Shown here in pieces: positions 2,614 to 28,572 of a stretch of DNA of 43,946 nt (positions are counted from its first letter, which is position 1; every line of letters starts with the position of its first letter). The stretch is from the IMG/VR virus record IMGVR_UViG_3300013102_000016, positions 1 to 43,946 of that record; one strand, given 5' to 3'. Origin of the DNA: a virus. The notes below the pieces were generated by a model. The model was not told the origin of the DNA. It was given only the letters and a program-made list of their open reading frames with translations, and did no database searches. Position numbers and translations under genes: made by a program.

Positions 2614-3863
2614 GGTTGCAGTCCGGCAGTCAGATCATCCGCCGCAGACTCTTCCTCTTCAGGCTTGAACAGATCAGCCCATGCATCCTTCTTGATCACG
2701 TCATGCTCTATCAGATAGGCGCGATAGTCCTCGCCAAGGTCGTTCAGTTTGACAGCGTTATCAATTACCTTGGTTTCGAAATCCATCCGCTCGGCAGCAG
2801 TGCCGCCCTGGTTCTCTTTGAAGCACACGCCATCAATGCCGTAGGCGTGACAAAGCTCAGTGATTGGGTCGAGCAGATAATCGAACTGCAGTCCCTCAAC
2901 CATGTCCTGGAACGATTGCCGCTCCTGGTTACCCGTGCTGTTCAGACCCTGTACAGACTCGCCAACGAGCATCGGAACAGGAATAGAAGTCACCAACGCA
3001 AGCCGGCGGATCGTGATGTTGTCCACGGCGTCCAGGTTGGTCAGAGTCTGGGCGATGGATATCACATCGTCTTCGCCGTCGATAAGACCATCGCCGTAGA
3101 TCCCGCGAATCTCCGCAAGCCTGGCGTAATACTGGATCAGGTAGTTGTCATCTCCACAGCGCACGGCATCGGCGAAACCCTTGATCTTGTGAAAAAGCGT
3201 CGAGTTCTTTTCGAGGATGGTTCCGGACGCGCGCTCGACAATGCCGTCGTTGATGAGCTGCGTATGGATCATTTCGAATTCGGAAATGCCGCCGTACTTG
3301 TAGTTGGGCAGGTCAAGCTCTGGTGGCAGGTAGTACGTGAAGTCGATCACCCGCGACCAGTGGAACGACTTGCCGCGCACGTTGTAATACTTCGGCTTCT
3401 GGTAACGCTCGTCACTGAGGTCAATACTGACTTCCATGGCTGTAACCATGTCGCCGCTGAACACGTCGAGCTTTGTCTTGGACGGATCTACCGGTTCAGT
3501 GCGCGGCTTGGACAGATCAGCGCCGCGCTCATTCAGCAGGATGATGCCGCGACCAAATCCGATCATGAACTTGGCGGCCTTCTTGACGGCGCGCTGAAGC
3601 CTCAGATCGTACTTGTCCTTATCCTTGTCGCTTTTGAACTGCAGAGTCTCGTTGAGCGCGTAGCCGGTCTTGATTGTGACGATCTTGGCGCCGAGACCAG
3701 TCTTGAAGATGGCGCGGAGCTGTGTGTCGTCAAGCCGCGTGGAAGTGATGACGTTCGTCGCCACAGCAGACCGGCGATTTGCCAGGCCATTGACGATGTT
3801 CGCCATGCCATCACGAAACCCGCGTTGCTTGCCACGACCGCCGCCGCGCTTCTTGTTGCTCAT
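2610..3863 (-). CDS. Portal protein (DUF1073-type, assigned by position and size)
   Basis: 417 aa, located between terL and the MuF-like gene with 4-nt overlaps. Basic N-terminus MSNKKRGGGRGKQRG. The family name comes from memory and was not searched. Confidence 0.7.
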   Translation of the reverse strand: MSNKKRGGGRGKQRGFRDGMANIVNGLANRRSAVATNVITSTRLDDTQLRAIFKTGLGAKIVTIKTGYALNETLQFKSDKDKDKYDLRLQRAVKKAAKFMIGFGRGIILLNERGADLSKPRTEPVDPSKTKLDVFSGDMVTAMEVSIDLSDERYQKPKYYNVRGKSFHWSRVIDFTYYLPPELDLPNYKYGGISEFEMIHTQLINDGIVERASGTILEKNSTLFHKIKGFADAVRCGDDNYLIQYYARLAEIRGIYGDGLIDGEDDVISIAQTLTNLDAVDNITIRRLALVTSIPVPMLVGESVQGLNSTGNQERQSFQDMVEGLQFDYLLDPITELCHAYGIDGVCFKENQGGTAAERMDFETKVIDNAVKLNDLGEDYRAYLIEHDVIKKDAWADLFKPEEEESAADDLTAGLQP

Positions 3864-6421: not shown

Positions 6422-6500
6422 TGGTGGGGATCACAGGAATCGAACCTGTACGACATACTGTCAGCCTTCGAAGCCGCGTCTACCATTCCGCCATCTCCCC
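6422..6500 (-). tRNA. tRNA, class-II-like; anticodon probably CGA (Ser); non-canonical anticodon arm
   Basis: Minus strand: GGGGAGAUGGCGGAAUGGUAGACGCGGCUUCGAAGGCUGACAGUAUGUCGUACAGGUUCGAUUCCUGUGAUCCCCACCA. It has a canonical T arm (ACAGG-UUCGAUU-CCUGU), a GG-containing D loop, an encoded CCA and a ~12-nt variable region. However, the helix closing UUCGAAG is only 3-4 bp, and positions 6:67 and 7:66 are G.A/A.G mismatches. Confidence 0.6.
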
Positions 6501-6525
6501 ATATTCGGTGTAATTGCTATTCACC

Positions 6526-6600
6526 TGCCATCGTGGATGGAATCGAACCATCCGTTGCCTCTACGCGAGGTGGTATTGCCACTATACGAACTTGATGGCA
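6526..6600 (-). tRNA. tRNA-like gene, non-canonical (possible pseudo-tRNA or decoy)
   Basis: Minus strand: UGCCAUCAAGUUCGUAUAGUGGCAAUACCACCUCGCGUAGAGGCAACGGAUGGUUCGAUUCCAUCCACGAUGGCA. The T arm (GAUGG-UUCGAUU-CCAUC) and D arm (GUAU-AGUGGCA-AUAC) are good. The only anticodon-region helix is CCUC-GCGUA-GAGG, with a 5-nt loop. The acceptor pairs only as CAUCAAG/CACGAUG (5 of 7), or as a 10-bp extended stem. No CCA is encoded. Confidence 0.4.
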
Positions 6601-6639
6601 TGCGAATAACAACTTCAGATTTAAAGAGCGTTTGAAACT

Positions 6640-6716
6640 TGGCGCGAATGAAGGGTTTCGAACCCTCGGCCTCTTGCGTGACAGGCAAGCGCTCTAACCA
6701 TCTGAGCTACATCCGC
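6640..6716 (-). tRNA. tRNA-Asp (anticodon GUC)
   Basis: The minus strand folds by hand into a full cloverleaf: GCGGAUG UA GCUC AGAUGGUUA GAGC G CUUGC CUGUCAC GCAAG AGGCC GAGGG UUCGAAA CCCUU CAUUCGC G CCA. Confidence 0.92.
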
Positions 6717-6890: not shown

Positions 6891-7241
6891 TGTGCTCTCC
6901 TGTGCTCCTGCTGTGCTCGTCAAAAGAGCACAGCTTCAGACCATGTACTACGTGGCATCCAGGGCATTTGGAGAGAATTGTGCTCCTGTGCTCGTCACTC
7001 GCACCTGAAAAAATCAATTCTTATTAAGATTAATAATCATTCATAGAGAAAAAGGGTGTTTTTTAAAAAAAAGGAGCACAGGAGCACAGAATCGCTACAG
7101 CCCTTATTCTACGCGGGCTAGACCTGTGCTCTTTTTGAGAGCACAAGGGGAGACCTAAGACAACTAAGATGCCATGGGGATCTAAGGGAGCAGAGAGATC
7201 TAAGGCTTGACTTGCGCGTCTTTCGTAGCCAAACTGTGCTC
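6891..7241. repeat. Cluster of 11 TGTGCTC/GAGCACA heptamers around an AT-rich core (putative origin, centromere or operator hub)
   Basis: TGTGCTC occurs at 6891, 6901, 6912, 6979, 6987, 7125 and 7235. GAGCACA occurs at 6926, 7074, 7082 and 7139. There are two TGTGCTC-N7-GAGCACA palindromes (6912-6932, 7125-7145). A 15-bp perfect inverted repeat, TGTGCTCCTGTGCTC (6979-6993) / GAGCACAGGAGCACA (7074-7088), flanks an 80-bp spacer that includes an A/T-rich stretch (~7010-7070). Confidence 0.85.
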
Positions 7242-13712: not shown

Positions 13713-14603
13713 CTAAGCGCAACACTGGCGCCTGTCAAACTTTTCGTATGGATCGAGCGGCAGGGCGATGATTGCACGGCCTTCATCGGCATGGTGATCG
13801 GCCTCGGATGGATCGCAGCCAATGTGCGTGAATCGTTCTTTGCAGCTGGCAAGCATCCAGTTGAAGTTGTCGAATTCCATGGCGCACAGGACTCTGGACT
13901 TGCCCATCTGCGACCACCAGATGCGCCAGGCGTGCGCGTAGTCGATGCAGATAATTGTTTTGCCGTCGTGTTCGCCTTCCGGTTCAAGGATGGCGGTCGA
14001 GCCGAACGAGGGGTTGCCGGCTGCGTAGGTGATTGGCGCCAATTGCTTGCCGATAGGGTTGATCGCGGCGACGTTAGTCGTCTCGCCGATATTGTTGATC
14101 AGCGGCACGATCAGCGAGCCTTTCAGGTTGAGGCACTGGACATTGGAAGCGGTGTTGTTTTGCATTAGGTATTTGTGCTGTTCGGTTGGTTGGCAGGTCG
14201 AGAGGATGGTCGCGGACTTTTCGCGGTCTTCTGCATGGCCAGGGAGAGAGCATTGAACGGCCCTGATGACTGTTTTGCGGGAAGTTACAGCTGATCGCTC
14301 AAGCTTAACTTCGCCAAGAATAGACTTGATGGCTTCTCGCATGCCGATGCCGCCGTTGATGGCGCGCACGAAGCCGATGGCATCATTGCCAAACCTCTTC
14401 CCTGCTCCGCAGCCATAGCACCAGAAGAAACCTTTAGACTCGCTGACAGTAAAGCTTGGCGAATTTTCATCATGGAATGGGCAGCATGCCTTCCAATCCT
14501 TGCCGGATTTTTTCAGGTCTGGCACGTATCCGCGAATTACATCCACGATATCTCTGTTGGCATCGTCGATTACATCTTGAGGAACTCGCTCTTCGCCGCT
14601 CAC
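13713..14603 (-). CDS. DNA primase (DnaG-type CHC2 zinc finger plus Toprim-like region)
   Basis: Track ORF is 13713..14702. KACCPFHDENSPSFTVSESKGFFWCYGCGAGK is the CHC2 primase zinc finger. The start is uncertain. GTG 14603 overlaps the upstream stop (GTGA). ATG 14702 would overlap the upstream gene by ~100 nt. Confidence 0.8.
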   Translation of the reverse strand: MSGEERVPQDVIDDANRDIVDVIRGYVPDLKKSGKDWKACCPFHDENSPSFTVSESKGFFWCYGCGAGKRFGNDAIGFVRAINGGIGMREAIKSILGEVKLERSAVTSRKTVIRAVQCSLPGHAEDREKSATILSTCQPTEQHKYLMQNNTASNVQCLNLKGSLIVPLINNIGETTNVAAINPIGKQLAPITYAAGNPSFGSTAILEPEGEHDGKTIICIDYAHAWRIWWSQMGKSRVLCAMEFDNFNWMLASCKERFTHIGCDPSEADHHADEGRAIIALPLDPYEKFDRRQCCA

Positions 14604-15058
14604 TTCTGCAACCCCAAAAACGTAGGCAGCTTGATCGCCGGAATGCGTCCGCGAGTTTTCCAGGTGTGGTAGTCGCCGACAGTGACGCATGCGGCCGAGC
14701 ACAATTCTTTCACACTGCCGTATTGCTGAGCCAGCTTCACCAGAAGCTTGGCATCAGGGGTTCGCGCCACTGCTGGCTTGCCAAGCACTGGGCCTTGTTG
14801 CTTGGTATCCCAGTCGGTGATATCCAGATCGGGGCGGAACTCCAGGCGACTGCGGCCAGTCACCTCTTCCATCCTGAGCGCGCCCAGCTTGGACATGCGG
14901 GCGTTGTAAATCCACTGGCGCACATGCTGCTCATCAAAACCCAGCTTTTCAGCCAGTTTGATTGGCGTCTCATATTCATCGACCAGCTTCAGAAGTGCGG
15001 CACCTCTTGGCGTCGCATTGAGGCGATCCCGAGTCTTCTGCATTACCTTTAGGGTCAT
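14600..15058 (-). CDS. Tandem HTH DNA-binding regulator (Cro/YdaS-like, 152 aa)
   Basis: There are two HTH-like halves: TPIKLAEKLGFDEQHVRQWIYNARMS and SVKELCSAACVTVGDYHTWKTRGRIP. It is the first gene of the leftward unit behind the divergent promoter region. Confidence 0.6.
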   Translation of the reverse strand: MTLKVMQKTRDRLNATPRGAALLKLVDEYETPIKLAEKLGFDEQHVRQWIYNARMSKLGALRMEEVTGRSRLEFRPDLDITDWDTKQQGPVLGKPAVARTPDAKLLVKLAQQYGSVKELCSAACVTVGDYHTWKTRGRIPAIKLPTFLGLQK

Positions 15059-15954: not shown

Positions 15955-16857
15955 TTGGCCTATACCCTTCACAACATCGCCACCGACAAAGAAAACACCA
16001 CCGCCAAGCGCGCCGACTCGATCAAAGCGCAGCTCAGCAAAATCAAGATCGTCAACGGCTTCAACGAGCGCGATTTCCAACGTGAAGACGTGCGCCTGCA
16101 TATCGCGTCAATCATTTCGTCACTGATCGCTGGCGAGCCGATTCCTGCGCTGGTTGTCTGGACGAATCCAGAAACCGGCGATATCGAGCTGGTTGATGGT
16201 GAGTGCCGCTACTGGGCCTACACCGATTTCGCAGCGGAATATCCCGATAAGTTCGACGGCTATGTCAGCGTTGTTCCGTACCAGGGCACTCCGGCTCAGC
16301 GCAAGGCCATGGTGGCCAAGAGCAACAGCCAATTGCCGCTGGATCCCGTTCAGCGCGGTCGCGTCTATCTGTCTCTGCGTGACGAATACGGCATGAGCCG
16401 GCAGGACATCGCGTCCGAGATGGGCAAGTCGCTGGCTCACGTTGATCAGCATCTGTTGCTGGCCAGCGGGGGTGAAGAAGTTCACGCAGCTGTTGGCGCT
16501 GGCGTTATCTCCGCAACCGAAGCCGTCAAGCTGGTACGCGATCATGGGGCTGATGCGCCTGCTGAGCTGGAGCGCCGCAAGGAGGCAGCCAAGGAGATTG
16601 GCAAGGGCAAGGTGACTGCGAAGGTTGCGGCGCCGAAAGCTCCGAGTCGGCCGAAAGTGGATATGGTTGTTTCGAATGCGGTTGTGCTGGTCAGTCGGCT
16701 GACTGCCGAAACTTTGCGCGACATTGATCGCCCCGAGGATACTCAAGTCCGCGTCAGTTCGCACGCCCTCGCCGACCTCATCATGGCCGTTCGCGAAATG
16801 CAGCAAGCCGGCAAACCGCTGGATGCTGACCGCCAGGTTGAATTGCCAATCGAGTGA
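15955..16857 (+). CDS. ParB/KorB-like DNA-binding protein (300 aa)
   Basis: The TTG start at 15955 follows GACAGGAGCAA (15938-15948). The ParB N-domain motif is IELVDGECRYWAY. A central HTH-like segment is GMSRQDIASEMGKSLAHVDQHL. No ParA partner is present. Confidence 0.7.
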   Translation: MAYTLHNIATDKENTTAKRADSIKAQLSKIKIVNGFNERDFQREDVRLHIASIISSLIAGEPIPALVVWTNPETGDIELVDGECRYWAYTDFAAEYPDKFDGYVSVVPYQGTPAQRKAMVAKSNSQLPLDPVQRGRVYLSLRDEYGMSRQDIASEMGKSLAHVDQHLLLASGGEEVHAAVGAGVISATEAVKLVRDHGADAPAELERRKEAAKEIGKGKVTAKVAAPKAPSRPKVDMVVSNAVVLVSRLTAETLRDIDRPEDTQVRVSSHALADLIMAVREMQQAGKPLDADRQVELPIE

Positions 16858-16881
16858 GGGCATAATTGTTTTGCGGATGGC

Positions 16882-17016
16882 GTGAGACCCAGAAGCAAAA
16901 CTTTGGACTGAGGCTATAGACCGCTTCGATGTATGCCGTTCCCTGACTTGATTGAGTAGCCTCAGTCCAAGTCATTTCAGGGAGTCTCACCGGCATACAG
17001 TCAAAGCGGTTTTTTT
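16882..17016 (+). promoter_or_regulatory. Structured intergenic RNA element: alternative antiterminator and terminator folds
   Basis: Fold A pairs 16903-16916 (TTGGACTGAGGCTA) with 16957-16970 (14 bp, perfect) and GTGAGAC 16882-88 with GTCTCAC 16984-90. Fold B pairs 16920-26 with 17004-10, 16930-38 with 16991-99, 16940-46 with 16977-83 and 16950-56 with 16961-67, and is followed by T7 (17010-17016). The two folds share 16957-16970. Confidence 0.55.
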
Positions 17017-17029
17017 GTGGGCTTGATTT

Positions 17030-17722
17030 ATGGCTTTAAGAAACTGCTCGATGTGCAGGGAGGACAAGGATAACTCTGCATTCAACAAAATGAAGAATGG
17101 ATATCTTGGGCTTCAGAAATATTGCAGGGCATGCCAGTCAATTACCTTTAAGGCTTATCACGAAAAGAACAGAGAGAAGTTAATAGCCGCTCAGAATAAT
17201 AGATATCACAAAAACAAGGAATCGATCAGCAAGGCCAGGAAGCACGCCTACTGGAATGATCCAATCCAAAACCAAAAGGTTAAAGCAAGGGCGGCAGCTT
17301 GGGCTAAAGCCAACAAGGAGAGAGTGCTAGCCAGGGCAAAAGCTTACACGAAAGAAAATTTCGCCAAGGTTTCGGCTAGGAAGAAAATACACAGAAGAGA
17401 AAATGCCGAAGCGATAGCTGATTACGACAGAAAATATCGCCGGTTAAACAGGCCGAAGATATTGAGAATAGGGGCAAAAAGGCGCGCTGCAAAAGCTGGA
17501 GCTACGGTGGCCTGGGCCAACATGGAGAATATAGAGGGCTTTTATGTTGAGGCTCAGCGGCTCACCAAAGAGACCGGAATTGCTTACCACGTTGACCATA
17601 TTGTCCCTCTGATATCAAAGCTAGTATGCGGCCTTCATTGCGAGGCAAATCTTCAAGTAATAACCGCATTTGAAAACATTTCAAAACTAAACAGGTATTG
17701 GCCTGATATGCCGGAGGATTGA
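17030..17722 (+). CDS. HNH homing-type endonuclease (230 aa)
   Basis: HNH core AYHVDHIVPLISKLVCGLHCEANLQVITAFENISK. N-terminal zinc ribbon CSMCRED...CRACQ. Basic repeats (KAYHEKNREK, RYHKNKES, KAYTKENF). Noticeably A/T-richer and AGA/AGG/ATA-rich relative to its neighbours. Confidence 0.85.
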   Translation: MALRNCSMCREDKDNSAFNKMKNGYLGLQKYCRACQSITFKAYHEKNREKLIAAQNNRYHKNKESISKARKHAYWNDPIQNQKVKARAAAWAKANKERVLARAKAYTKENFAKVSARKKIHRRENAEAIADYDRKYRRLNRPKILRIGAKRRAAKAGATVAWANMENIEGFYVEAQRLTKETGIAYHVDHIVPLISKLVCGLHCEANLQVITAFENISKLNRYWPDMPED

Positions 17723-17723
17723 T

Positions 17724-19682
17724 ATGCCCCTATTATCGTTTCAAAAACCAGCAGTAACCGCCCTATGCCGCCACTTCAGATCACGAGAAACCACGAAGTT
17801 TCTTGACCGTGATGTGCACCCGCCGATCATTGTCAGCGCCTCGGTATCCTCGGGGAAGAGCGTGATGTTAGCCGAGTGCGCAAAGGCCGTTCAAGATGCA
17901 AAGGCTGAGCGTGATGCCGCCGCTGGCAAGGATCATGCACCGATATGCATCCTCGTGATTCAGCGGCAGTCGCTACTTTGCTCCCAAAACAGTGATGCAG
18001 CCTGGCAAGCAAGCGTAAAGAACTCAGTTTTCAGTGCGGCGCTCAACAGGAAATCAACAGCTTTCAAGGTTGTATATGCAACTGAAGGCAGTATCGCTCG
18101 CGCCTTGACCCAATATCGGTTCAGCCCATGGACTGAAGAAGAGAAGCTTCGCCACCCGAATTGGAAGGCCGCCGCTGGAAAATTCCATCCTGATCTTATC
18201 TTGATCGACGAGGTGCACCAGGTTCCTTTCGAAGCGGAGGATTCGCAGTATATGAAGACTCTGCTGCATTTTTACGACATCAAGCCGCACCTGCGATTAG
18301 CTGGCATGACCGGATCTCCGTTTCGTGGCATCAGCTCGATAGTCGGGAATACTCCGCAGCACCTGTGGAAAAAGGTCGCCAGCATTGAGCCAGGCGATCC
18401 TGACTATCCAGAGGGCGGCGTCGGGAACGGCATTATAAGCACGGAATTTATGGTAGATCAGGGGTGGGTCGTAGCTCCGCAGTTCGGATTCCCTGACGAT
18501 CAAGATACTCATTATGATTTCAGTCACCTATCTACCGAGACTTGGGATTATCCTGAGCACGAGTTGGATGCCGCTGTTAGCGATAAAGAGCTTTGCCTTG
18601 CGATATGCGCCGACTTCATCCGCAAATCAAAGGATCGCGGCGGCGTAGTCATCTTTGCCGCCACTCAGCGTCATACTCGGCAGATTGCCGCCGCCATGAA
18701 ATTGCTCGGCGTCGATCCTGAACAGATTGGCGTGATCATCGACAAGACTACGCAGAAGGAACAGACCCGCATCCTTACCGCTGCCAAGGACGGCAAACTG
18801 AAATACGTCATCAACGTCGCCGTTCTGACGACTGGGGTCAATGTCCAGTGGTGGGATACCGAAGTTCTTATGCGGCCAATCGCCGCTATTGTTTTGCTGA
18901 TCCAGGCTATCGGTAGAATCTTGCGCCTACTGATCGAAGATGGCGAAATGGGCATGGTGGAGCGTGACGCCCTGACAGCAGAACTTCGCAAGATGCTAAT
19001 CGCTGCCAGTAGTAAGCCAGACGCATTGGTTCTGGATTATGCGGGGGTCATGGACACCCTTGGGGCGCTTTACGAAAATCCAGTTCTTGAGATGGCCGAG
19101 CTTGAGAAGGCTAAGAAGGAAGGCAAAGATCTCATAGAATGTCAAAAGTGCCTGACTATGAATAGCCCCAATGCTAGGCGATGCATTGGTCGAGATGCTT
19201 CCGGCGAACGTTGCGAGCACTTCTGGCACTTCAGGTTGTGCCCTGGCTGCATGACGCAGAACGATCAAGTCGCCCGCGAGTGCCGATCCTGCAAGCGCAT
19301 GCTCATCGACCCGAATGCTGCGCTGAACAATAAGCATTATGTAGATGGTGAATCCATCCCGGTCCGCTCCATGAAAGCCGGTCACGGATCTGGCGGCAAG
19401 CTCTGGTTTCGCTACGAACTGTCTACCGGTGACACGCCCATGGAGATCTTCTATCCGCATGCTGGCGAGAATAAGAAGGTCAACAACATCATCTGGGGCA
19501 AGTTCGTTGATGCGCTGCCGATTGATCAGCGGTCACGTCTGCGGCTTCGGGCAATGAAGGCTGAAACCGTTATGGAAAATATTGATCTGATCCCGGTTCC
19601 GGCTGAGTTATCGGCGCGGAAGAAGGGGAGTCGCTGGACGATTGGGCGTCGGCGTTATCAGGAACAGGAGGTTGCATTGTGA
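17724..19682 (+). CDS. SF2 (DEAD/DEVH-box) DNA helicase with C-terminal zinc ribbons (652 aa)
   Basis: Walker A SASVSSGKSV, DEVH box LILIDEVHQ, motif V VAVLTTGVNV, motif VI QAIGRILR. C-terminal CQKC...C...CPGC...CRSC. Confidence 0.85.
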   Translation: MPLLSFQKPAVTALCRHFRSRETTKFLDRDVHPPIIVSASVSSGKSVMLAECAKAVQDAKAERDAAAGKDHAPICILVIQRQSLLCSQNSDAAWQASVKNSVFSAALNRKSTAFKVVYATEGSIARALTQYRFSPWTEEEKLRHPNWKAAAGKFHPDLILIDEVHQVPFEAEDSQYMKTLLHFYDIKPHLRLAGMTGSPFRGISSIVGNTPQHLWKKVASIEPGDPDYPEGGVGNGIISTEFMVDQGWVVAPQFGFPDDQDTHYDFSHLSTETWDYPEHELDAAVSDKELCLAICADFIRKSKDRGGVVIFAATQRHTRQIAAAMKLLGVDPEQIGVIIDKTTQKEQTRILTAAKDGKLKYVINVAVLTTGVNVQWWDTEVLMRPIAAIVLLIQAIGRILRLLIEDGEMGMVERDALTAELRKMLIAASSKPDALVLDYAGVMDTLGALYENPVLEMAELEKAKKEGKDLIECQKCLTMNSPNARRCIGRDASGERCEHFWHFRLCPGCMTQNDQVARECRSCKRMLIDPNAALNNKHYVDGESIPVRSMKAGHGSGGKLWFRYELSTGDTPMEIFYPHAGENKKVNNIIWGKFVDALPIDQRSRLRLRAMKAETVMENIDLIPVPAELSARKKGSRWTIGRRRYQEQEVAL

Positions 19683-23025: not shown

Positions 23026-23040
23026 CGCGCAACCCAATCA

Positions 23041-23074: not shown

Positions 23075-23103
23075 TTGACATAGTTATTATGCGGATCTAT
23101 AGT
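23075..23103 (+). promoter_or_regulatory. Sigma70-type promoter, TTGACATAGTTATTAT family (best match in the genome)
   Basis: TTGACA-tagttattatgcggatc(17)-TATAGT. The leader GACAGGAGCAA at 23117-23127 precedes the ATG at 23132. Confidence 0.7.
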
Positions 23104-27855: not shown

Positions 27856-28572
27856 TTAAATCACCTTTCTTGCAAAGAAGCCGCCGACACGTGTCGGATC
27901 AAATTTACTCGCAAAACCTTGCGAAAGAGCATTATTTGAGAAGCCAAAAGTTAGTCCTGGCTCTGCTTGAATGATAACTTTGTAGCGAACGCCTTGAGGC
28001 TTCGGCAACAAGTTAAGGCTTTGTATCAAGCGCAACCTATCTAGACTGACCACCGACGAAACGTAAAGCGTAAGGGTCATATCAAGATTGTCTATTACGT
28101 ATGCTCGACCATCAAAAGCAGAGAGTACAACGTCTTGTATGCTGATATATTGGTCACTGGATACGTATCCAGCAGCTCTATTCAGCGCGGCTTTCACTCT
28201 AATGAAAAACCGATAATCACTATCTCCTAACTGGAGGTCGGTAAAGGCTGAAGAGAATTTGCTGTAGAATGGCCCGCCTATTCGCATTGGGTCAAATTTG
28301 CTTGAGAACCCCTTATCAATCGGATTTATATCAAATCCGAAATAAACCTTGGGGATGATTCCCGGAACCGATCTGCCTATGCCGACGATCCTGCCAAGCA
28401 CGTCGAGCTGCGCACCAATGGCATTATCCAAATCGAATGCCGCATCAAGCGAATCGATGAACCCGCGCGCAACCTCCCAGGTGGAGGCTTGCAGTTCAAT
28501 TTCCGCTTTAGCCTTTGTCTTTTCCCAATACTGCTTTATGAGCAGGTTCGAGGTCTCATCGATAAGCGACAT
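27856..28572 (-). CDS. Baseplate wedge or fibre-attachment protein (DUF2612 / P2 gpI-like, 238 aa)
   Basis: Positioned after the baseplate J gene. N-terminal ...LDNAIGAQLDVLGRIVGIGRS pattern. Confidence 0.55.
   Translation of the reverse strand: MSLIDETSNLLIKQYWEKTKAKAEIELQASTWEVARGFIDSLDAAFDLDNAIGAQLDVLGRIVGIGRSVPGIIPKVYFGFDINPIDKGFSSKFDPMRIGGPFYSKFSSAFTDLQLGDSDYRFFIRVKAALNRAAGYVSSDQYISIQDVVLSAFDGRAYVIDNLDMTLTLYVSSVVSLDRLRLIQSLNLLPKPQGVRYKVIIQAEPGLTFGFSNNALSQGFASKFDPTRVGGFFARKVI

Follow-up and report, generated by a model that had tools for sequence, protein, structure and literature searches.

The spacer between the ParB-like and HNH-like genes carries two competing RNA folds

The viral record IMGVR_UViG_3300013102_000016 was analyzed over its whole length of 43,946 nucleotides (nt), hereafter called the window. 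On its + strand, a ParB-like gene, a gene for an endonuclease VII/HNH-like protein and an SF2 helicase gene follow one another, and a spacer separates the first two. This spacer contains the element studied here, which is predicted to give a phage RNA of about 135 nt, evolutionarily conserved and previously uncatalogued, able to adopt either an intrinsic terminator or a competing fold (Table 1). A previous reading of the sequence (the original prediction) had proposed two incompatible folds at this place, and all of the proposed helices as well as the closing run of seven T are present in the letters of the window. Fold A consists of helices P1 and P2, the latter being a perfect helix of 14 base pairs (bp). 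Fold B is a long interrupted hairpin built of helices T1 (its base), T2, T3 and an apical helix, and it is closed by the T run.

Table 1. Coordinates of the element and of its flanking genes in the window
Feature	Coordinates	Strand	Description
ParB-like gene	15955..16857	+	Upstream neighbor
Sigma70-like predicted promoter	16838..16866	+	TTGAAT (16838-43), 17 nt, CATAAT (16861-66); 9/12 match
P1 5' strand	16882..16888	+	GTGAGAC; pairs with 16984-90
Joining segment J1	16889..16902	+	CCAGAAGCAAAACT
P2 5' strand	16903..16916	+	TTGGACTGAGGCTA; partner 16957-70
Terminator 5' strands	16920..16946	+	T1 ACCGCTT (16920-26), T2 TGTATGCCG (16930-38), T3 TCCCTGA (16940-46)
Apical terminator helix 5' strand	16944..16956	+	TGACTTG / GATTGAG; GATTGAG (16950-56) pairs with CTCAGTC (16961-67), including one G.U pair; rivals P2 for 16957-74
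Shared strand	16957..16970	+	TAGCCTCAGTCCAA; P2 3' strand in fold A, apical loop and apical helix 3' strand in fold B
T3 3' strand	16977..16983	+	TCAGGGA; GGGA also serves the P1 extension
P1 3' strand	16984..16990	+	GTCTCAC; in fold B a 7-nt bulge facing the single U16939
Terminator 3' strands and U7	16991..17016	+	T2 CGGCATACA (16991-99), T1 AAGCGGT (17004-10), U7 (17010-16)
Right cassette edge	17017..17032	+	GTGGG-N5-TTT-ATG; weak Shine-Dalgarno-like motif and HNH start codon
Endonuclease VII/HNH-like gene	17030..17722	+	230 amino acids; phrog_1035 (1.8e-16), phrog_26577 (3.8e-26); no match in Pfam
SF2 helicase gene	17724..19682	+	Abuts the HNH stop (17722/17724)

The two folds do not coexist at the level of secondary structure, as originally proposed. 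Nucleotides 16957-16970 and 16981-16990 serve both: fold A has P2 and P1 there, fold B has the apical helix, T3 and the bulge. This is the sharing of nucleotides looked for in an attenuator. P1 can moreover be extended by pairing CC 16889-16890 with GG 16981-16982, leaving A16983 bulged, and the GAAG of J1 can pair with UUUC 16974-16977 in fold A. The GGGA of the T3 3' strand is near-invariant throughout the family described below, and the segment GAAGCAAA of J1 is kept in four of its seven lineages.

Folding of the + strand of 16858-17029 gave fold B as the minimum free energy (MFE) structure, at -65.6 kcal/mol (z = -4.15; none of 200 shuffled sequences was as good), and the - strand of the same segment folds worse (-57.7 kcal/mol). 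The T1 stem ACCGCUU/AAGCGGU runs straight into U7, as in an intrinsic terminator, so that one of the two folds is a predicted terminator; a simple terminator scanner did not report it, owing to the length and the interruptions of the hairpin. With regard to fold A, P2 is one of two perfect inverted repeats of at least 14 nt, with arms at most 120 nt apart, in the 44-kb window.

A further hairpin, P0 (GTTTTGC/GCAAAAC, 16868-16874/16895-16901), was considered as part of the core and left outside it, since it is well formed in window-type lineages only and is probably cut by the transcription start. The 11-mer ATAATTGTTTT recurs at 13951, and at the same place in relatives. This recurrence, about 3 kb upstream, sits in a conserved stretch overlapping a - strand open reading frame (ORF; 13713-14702) and is probably unrelated to the element.

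The element is conserved in phages of different hosts

The family was built from relatives recovered through their helicase, then by pattern scans and BLAST. It comprises 16 distinct copies in 18 phage records, all 133-139 nt long when measured from the start of P1 through the last U, and all ending in a tract of six to seven U (16/16). The carriers are uncultured relatives recovered through the helicase (one 99% identical, five 75-78%), additional contigs of viral and metagenome origin, a divergent metagenome contig (L083), Pantoea phage PdC23 and the Erwinia phages Pavtok, Stean and PEp14. In these four isolates, the copy lies in unannotated intergenic DNA. The closest isolate, Pseudomonas phage Amjad_SA, whose helicase shares 65% protein identity with that of the window, does not have the spacer.

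Other searches delimit the family. Megablast against phage records gave no match. Among 56 IMG/VR loci encoding relatives of the window HNH protein, no copy was found except in the near-identical contig, and therefore the element is not tied to this HNH family. A relaxed P1 pattern returned nine additional matches in IMG/VR, none of them genuine. Two patterns were run on GTDB genomes: the first gave no match and the second gave six, all due to chance (in coding regions or at a tRNA-like 3' end). The L083 copy was unmatched in E. coli genomes.

Where copies are compared between contigs, the element is 94-99% identical, the downstream HNH gene 61-66% identical in DNA and 39-52% in protein, and the 255 nt upstream of the element 58-80% identical. 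In its extreme conservation, the element thus stands out from its surroundings like an island.

Both folds are maintained by compensatory changes

Covariation was counted on an unsupervised MAFFT alignment of 13 sequences, with 500 shuffles and slid-partner controls. For the terminator helices T1-T3, 91.6% of the cells are paired and 13 of the 23 pairs have changed on both sides; no shuffle out of 500 reached this value, and slid partners were paired in 36-51% of cells. The competing helices P1 and P2 gave similar results, with 94.1% of the cells paired, double-sided changes at 9 of 17 pairs, 0/500 shuffles reaching the value and 25-44% pairing for slid partners. T2 taken alone is 100% paired with seven of nine pairs compensated. 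When the helices were registered by hand, changes on both sides were seen in 10 of 11 P2 core columns (counted among eight representative sequences), 7/8 for T2, 4/5 for T1 and 2/7 for P1. The RNAalifold consensus is the terminator, with compensation at 21 of 30 pairs.

The sequences of the variants illustrate these counts. A fitting partner accompanies each form of the P2 5' strand: TTGGACTGAGGCTA (window), GGATCGACGGC (L011 type), TGATCAGCGGCAGG (L083) and TATCGACA (PEp14). P1 is canonical in 56 of 56 cells and reads GTGAGAC/GTCTCAC in all copies but those of PdC23 and Stean, which have GTGGAAC/GTTCCAC, a difference of two compensatory pairs. This compensated switch is recent, since Stean and Pavtok are 90% identical and differ in P1. 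A single TT-to-CA change extends T3 and the P1 extension together. In window-type lineages, the shared strand changes from TCAGTC to TCGATC while its apical partner GATTGA stays constant, pairing being kept by a shifted G.U. The G.U pairs are seen on the + strand only, indicating that the functional form is the + strand transcript.

The helices of the original prediction are therefore present in the homologous loci, where both folds covary: both alternative structures are maintained by evolution, across phages of different hosts. P1 (16882-16888) and the GGGA...C segment (16980-16991) behave differently from the other strands in being near-invariant, with two P1 variants over the seven lineages against five or six for T2 and P2. 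Secondary structure alone leaves this near-invariance unexplained, which hints at a sequence-specific partner.

The element is part of a cassette placed before unrelated genes

Conservation begins on the left at the -35 hexamer of the predicted promoter. All window-type relatives share this promoter unchanged, whether the gene upstream is that for ParB, one for a truncated small protein (L002) or one that is methylase-like (L016). In the window, the last codons of the ParB-like gene (VELPIE*) overlap this hexamer and the spacer of the promoter-like site. The predicted start lies at about 16873-16875, some 8 nt ahead of P1. A -10-like hexamer stands 15-17 nt before P1 in four of five lineage groups, and the other, unrelated flanks carry TAGACC-17-TATTGT (L091/L093), TATAAT (L083) or TTGCAA-17-GATAAT (PdC23). 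We infer promoter activity at this edge and termination at the other. No LexA box was seen by inspection at the L083 and PdC23 promoters. It had been proposed as well that a degenerate copy of the promoter motif sits here. The string (16861-16878) is real and has one relative with three mismatches, at 23079, but it is not the same promoter: it lies between the -35 and -10 hexamers of the promoter at 23075 and spans the -10 here, that is, in another register.

On the right, a co-oriented start codon follows the U-run by 13-15 nt in every lineage (18/18 records), and the gene that it opens differs. The window and its near-twin have the endonuclease VII/HNH-like gene, the other Pseudomonas-type contigs one of an unrelated HNH family (phrog_953), PdC23 and L083 one for a Rha/KilAC antirepressor, and the Erwinia phages one for a small protein of unknown kind. 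Comparison of 16837-17032 of the window with L002, L016, L091 and L093 shows edges that fall on the -35 hexamer and the start codon, flanking genes that are about 60% identical in DNA, and an L002 cassette joined to the truncated small gene at a 'VEL' microhomology, all of which suggests that the cassette may move by recombination.

The place itself is variable. Where relatives are devoid of the element, ParB directly adjoins the helicase (L010) or is separated from it by other small genes, and over the whole ParB-helicase junction (15955-19682 in the window; L002-L016) the contents range from nothing (L010) to small genes, a methylase-like gene or either HNH family. This slot is therefore a hot spot, and the cassette an accessory control unit in it, which would add a control point to an otherwise continuous operon. 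No promoter-like site was found between the U-run (17016) and the HNH start (17030), and the next strong terminator and the next promoter lie at 23040 and 23075, respectively. Since the HNH and helicase genes moreover abut, about 6 kb of replication/recombination genes would need read-through. The segment 23040-23103, a terminator (AGCCTGCATTCGTGTGGGCT followed by T5) and then a near-consensus promoter (TTGACA-17-TATAGT), is kept in L006, L008 and L016 and marks the end of this replication/recombination block.

The same slot can hold another structured leader, unrelated to the element, which we call 'type 2' (L004:3272-3398 and L006:~3250-3385, preceding the HNH gene of phrog_953). It starts with the same promoter-like signal and has a terminator stem of 17 bp that covaries between L004 and L006 and is followed by a U-run, two internal hairpins with GNRA loops (GAAA, GCAA) whose stems covary too, and a junction segment, TCCGCCAA, complementary to its 5' TTGGCGG.

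Elsewhere in the window, ARAGORN and the Rfam tRNA/tmRNA models place no such gene in the element and tRNAs only at 6422-6716, namely Ser (CGA, 6422-6500) and Asp (GTC, 6640-6716), both on the - strand. Between these and the first + strand genes, the non-coding segment 6900-7150 contains at least eight GTGCTC/GAGCAC hexamers in both orientations, a perfect 15-nt inverted repeat (6979-6993/7074-7088) and a terminator-like CCTGTGCTCTTTTT. The hexamers look like operators of a phage regulator, or possibly belong to a second leader with alternative pairing.

The order of folding may decide between the two structures

At full length, the terminator is the MFE structure in all copies (-50 to -62 kcal/mol). 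The order of folding was approximated by the MFE at each transcript length and by direct-path barriers. In L011, L083 and PdC23, fold A becomes the MFE structure when the P2 3' strand emerges and stays so for 16-18 nt beyond P1; for the window, with an RNA starting at P1, it is so from the emergence of P2 to about +8 nt. In all these cases, P1 joins fold A when its own 3' strand has emerged. The terminator becomes the MFE structure 11-19 nt after P1 has joined, and by then the polymerase would be in or past the U-tract. The computed barriers are about 10-12 kcal/mol for the path from the local hairpin into fold A and 15-34 kcal/mol out of it. From these barriers and from folding by length, we therefore infer that the choice is kinetic and finely balanced, as expected of a regulated attenuator.

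P2 has 11-14 bp in five of the seven lineages. Fold A is modeled as a rod of about 30 bp whose terminal loop contains the 5' strands of T1 and T2, the 3' strands that pair with them lying at the foot of the rod, attached directly to P1, and this geometry would block completion of the terminator. In every lineage, P2 is incompatible with the upper terminator helices, either through shared nucleotides or because the linkers would be just 2-6 nt, and hence at least part of the structure must switch.

The element is probably a transcription attenuator

Taking these results together, we interpret the spacer as a self-contained promoter-leader-terminator cassette whose leader probably works as a transcription attenuator, a reading that we hold with moderate confidence. 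During synthesis, the first 35 nt or so, comprising the 5' strands of P1 and P2, would pair with 16957-16990. The resulting long irregular rod (P1, P1 extension and P2) would loop out the 5' half of the terminator and hold the upper 3' strand of its hairpin together with the 7-nt bulge. As long as the rod persists, the terminator would stay incomplete and the polymerase would read through into the HNH gene, the helicase gene and the replication/recombination block of about 6 kb. Displacement of the rod, or a 5' segment that is not free to pair, would instead let the stabler T1-T2-T3 hairpin form and, with U7, stop transcription at about 17016. The effector could be the speed or pausing of RNA polymerase, an RNA-binding protein of host or phage, or the terminated RNA acting on nascent transcripts. 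The element thus most likely gates expression of the nuclease and the replication genes behind it. The original interpretation has support from structure and comparison and is plausible as to function, and the element would be a new RNA family with attenuator logic.

The original prediction had left the choice between an attenuator and a riboswitch. The former fits the genomic context and the covariation, while the latter is not supported: a conserved core resembling an aptamer is absent, an Rfam scan with E values up to 10 returned nothing, the joining segments differ from one lineage to another, and most of the constant positions belong to helix strands (P1, GGGA). A leader peptide does not account for the element either, as inspection of the copies showed no conserved ORF or Shine-Dalgarno sequence; the mini-ORF ATG-GCG-TGA at 16877-16885 is missing from the L011-type and enteric copies. 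Motifs for Hfq (ARN) and CsrA (GGA), seen by eye, are not universal.

Several observations weigh against attenuation. When P1 is enforced at full length, the fold is 2-17 kcal/mol less stable than the terminator. In the window, an RNA with the predicted 5' end at 16874 forms a competing 5' structure that holds P2 back as long as P1 is unable to form, and with this start 8 nt upstream fold A gains the MFE about 1 nt ahead of the completion of P1 at the earliest. In the three Erwinia phages, P2 has just 8 bp and is missing from the constrained MFE structure, and no clear -10 or good sigma70 promoter precedes P1. Fold A leaves the lower terminator stem not directly sequestered, its exclusion being argued from geometry. 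P1 is topologically compatible with T1 and T2, since it would stack on T2 as a pseudoknot between bulge and 5' tail, and because of this compatibility the covariation of P1 is no proof that the folds are exclusive. Finally, neither an aptamer-like core nor an antisense promoter was found in the element, and no effector was recognized.

The compatibility of P1 with the terminator is central to another explanation, in which the spacer is a stand-alone gene for a small RNA of about 140 nt that has a single pseudoknotted fold and acts in trans as a regulator, decoy or sponge, read-through being a leak. Through P1, the 5' tail would then make a tertiary contact with the 7-nt bulge and give a three-way junction with T2 and T3, and P2 would be a loop-tail pairing or a folding intermediate. 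The unpaired P1 3' strand with linkers of 0, 0 and 1 nt would be ideal for such a junction, and the 'type 2' leader likewise has a 5' tail complementary to an unpaired segment of its terminator. Promoter-like signals at a fixed distance in four unrelated flanks, a strong terminator in every copy, nucleotide conservation that is extreme relative to the flanks and the unusual constancy of the P1 sequence would also suit a small RNA, and the N15 and P4 leaders show that promoter-proximal terminated phage RNAs can function. We nevertheless regard this explanation as rather improbable, for P2 sterically excludes the upper terminator helices (linkers of 2-6 nt in L3) and yet both are conserved, the window type keeping them through three-way covariation. 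In addition, the co-oriented start codon behind the U-run in all 18 records points to a leader, and the conserved GAAGCAAAAC has no convincing target in the window (four matches with one mismatch, 3.4 being expected). A trans action could also be part of attenuation itself, the terminated RNA capturing the 5' segment of nascent leaders and so causing termination, which would keep the downstream nuclease or antirepressor low and independent of dosage, as for P4 CI RNA and N15 CA RNA. Complementarity of the fold B bulge (the P1 3' strand) and apical loop (part of the P2 3' strand) to the nascent 5' region is consistent with this, and so is folding by length, which gives read-through as the default in several lineages, where an active inducer of termination would make sense. 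A Rha/KilAC antirepressor, moreover, lies downstream in two lineages, a class known to be under leader-derived small RNAs in N15, P1 and P4 (Ravin et al. 1999, cited in PMC4488713). On the other side, the RNA's own 5' tail is nearer than any nascent transcript and would compete for the bulge, and the element has no homology to C4 or isrK. This autoregulation is a conjecture, and we judge it unlikely.

Two simpler explanations dispense with any switch of the RNA. The hairpin could be a constitutive terminator that insulates a selfish endonuclease gene, an RNase III processing site before it, or both, with the P1/P2 complementarity either assisting folding or being incidental. In its general outline, that of a long hairpin with interruptions and an asymmetric internal loop, fold B resembles phage RNase III sites, and in all copies the terminator is thermodynamically the ground state. 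Free-standing endonuclease genes of the T4 type are commonly flanked by terminators and very stable hairpins, which keep their expression limited (PMC2988022). Double-sided change at nine of the 17 P1/P2 pairs, with pairing kept at 94%, is not incidental, however, and a strong terminator would starve the helicase and five further genes that have no promoter of their own, making a purely constitutive role very unlikely. The sequence could finally act as DNA, through inverted repeats bound by a protein such as the ParB-like one, as a replication origin or single-strand initiation site, or as the site recognized by the adjacent endonuclease. The adjoining ParB-like gene of the window, the near-identity among phages with divergent flanks and the fact that the window does hold repeated operator-like hexamers (6900-7150) would agree with a DNA element. 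Against it, the arms of each helix covary to wholly different sequences between lineages, the G.U pairs are confined to the + strand, the U-run, promoter-like signal and gene co-orientation are all conserved, and the element also occurs away from ParB, beside unrelated genes; we thus give this explanation hardly any credence. A naive homing site is ruled out because the element is absent from endonuclease-free relatives.

If the attenuator reading holds, it would add a covariation-supported family to the few structured RNAs known from phages, and one of the few families for which comparison of the copies reveals the two states of a switch. It would also explain how selfish endonucleases and antirepressors can insert into an essential operon while downstream expression survives, such genes bringing a ready-made promoter-attenuator unit along or settling behind one. 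That P1, and indeed the entire RNA, is so nearly invariant (94-99% as against about 60% for its neighbors) points to an interacting factor. More speculatively, and with clear doubt on our side, the cassette might represent a portable class of bistable riboregulators that moves between Pseudomonas-type and enterobacterial phages and gates 'dangerous' genes through an unprecedented trigger, perhaps the terminated RNA of the cassette itself, perhaps a conserved host factor recognizing the near-invariant P1/GGGAGUCUCACC core. As the cassette is short and modular and sits before unrelated genes, it is potentially useful as a synthetic control part.

Comparison with known RNA systems

Scans against Rfam 15, run with gathering cutoffs and with E values up to 1-10, returned nothing for the window or for the loci of L083, PdC23, Pavtok and PEp14, so that the element corresponds to no family known there; in the positive controls N15 and P4, C4 and isrK were detected at 61-79 bits. 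The covariance models of C4 (RF01695) and isrK (RF01394) likewise gave no match in the window or in the four related loci. By sequence or structure, the element belongs to none of the families compared here, that is, attenuator leaders, the P4, N15 and P1 leaders and T4-like hairpins.

The likeness to terminator/antiterminator attenuators (pT181/pIP501, riboswitch platforms) lies in a promoter-proximal leader with a terminator right before the regulated gene, in an upstream segment that competes for part of this terminator and, according to our folding model, in an alternative fold that forms first while the terminator is the stabler end state. It differs in that its 5' segment takes the upper 3' strand and the 7-nt bulge, not the 5' strand of the terminator base, and in that no leader peptide, recognizable aptamer or antisense promoter was found in it.

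With P4 CI, N15 CA and P1 C4, the element has in common that it is encoded by a phage, promoter-proximal and endowed with internal complementarity of several segments within one transcript; in PdC23 and L083, a short RNA to the terminator also precedes an antirepressor-type gene. It has no homology to them in sequence or structure, and mostly an HNH endonuclease gene and then replication genes lie downstream. The antirepressor operons of N15, P1 and P4 are described as being under leader-RNA control (Ravin et al. 1999, cited in PMC4488713). In N15 (28301-28489) and P4 (8420-8692), we observed an isrK-family RNA up to a terminator, followed by a C4-family RNA.

In T4-like phages, free-standing homing endonuclease genes (mobE, segB, segF, seg43(25)) are restrained by hairpins or terminators (PMC2988022). 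As in these, a very stable structure lies upstream of or inside an endonuclease gene placed between conserved operon genes, where it presumably limits the nuclease while sparing the essential neighbor. The T4-like hairpins sequester the ribosome-binding site or are simple terminators, and they are gene-specific (PMC2988022), whereas the element would be one two-state RNA with its own predicted promoter, shared by unrelated types of genes.

The order of promoter, non-coding RNA, leaky terminator and potentially toxic gene recalls type III toxin-antitoxin systems (ToxIN), in which the terminator sets the ratio of RNA to protein. Unlike these, the element has no tandem repeats, a repeat search over 16700-17200 giving chance-level direct repeats of 7-9 nt only, and specific pairing of the RNA with a protein as its antitoxin is unlikely because the downstream proteins are unrelated to each other. 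The put RNA of HK022 differs from the element in having about 70 nt and two stem-loops that share no strands with a terminator; the two are alike in that put, a structured phage RNA close to its promoter, acts in cis and enables RNA polymerase to pass terminators.

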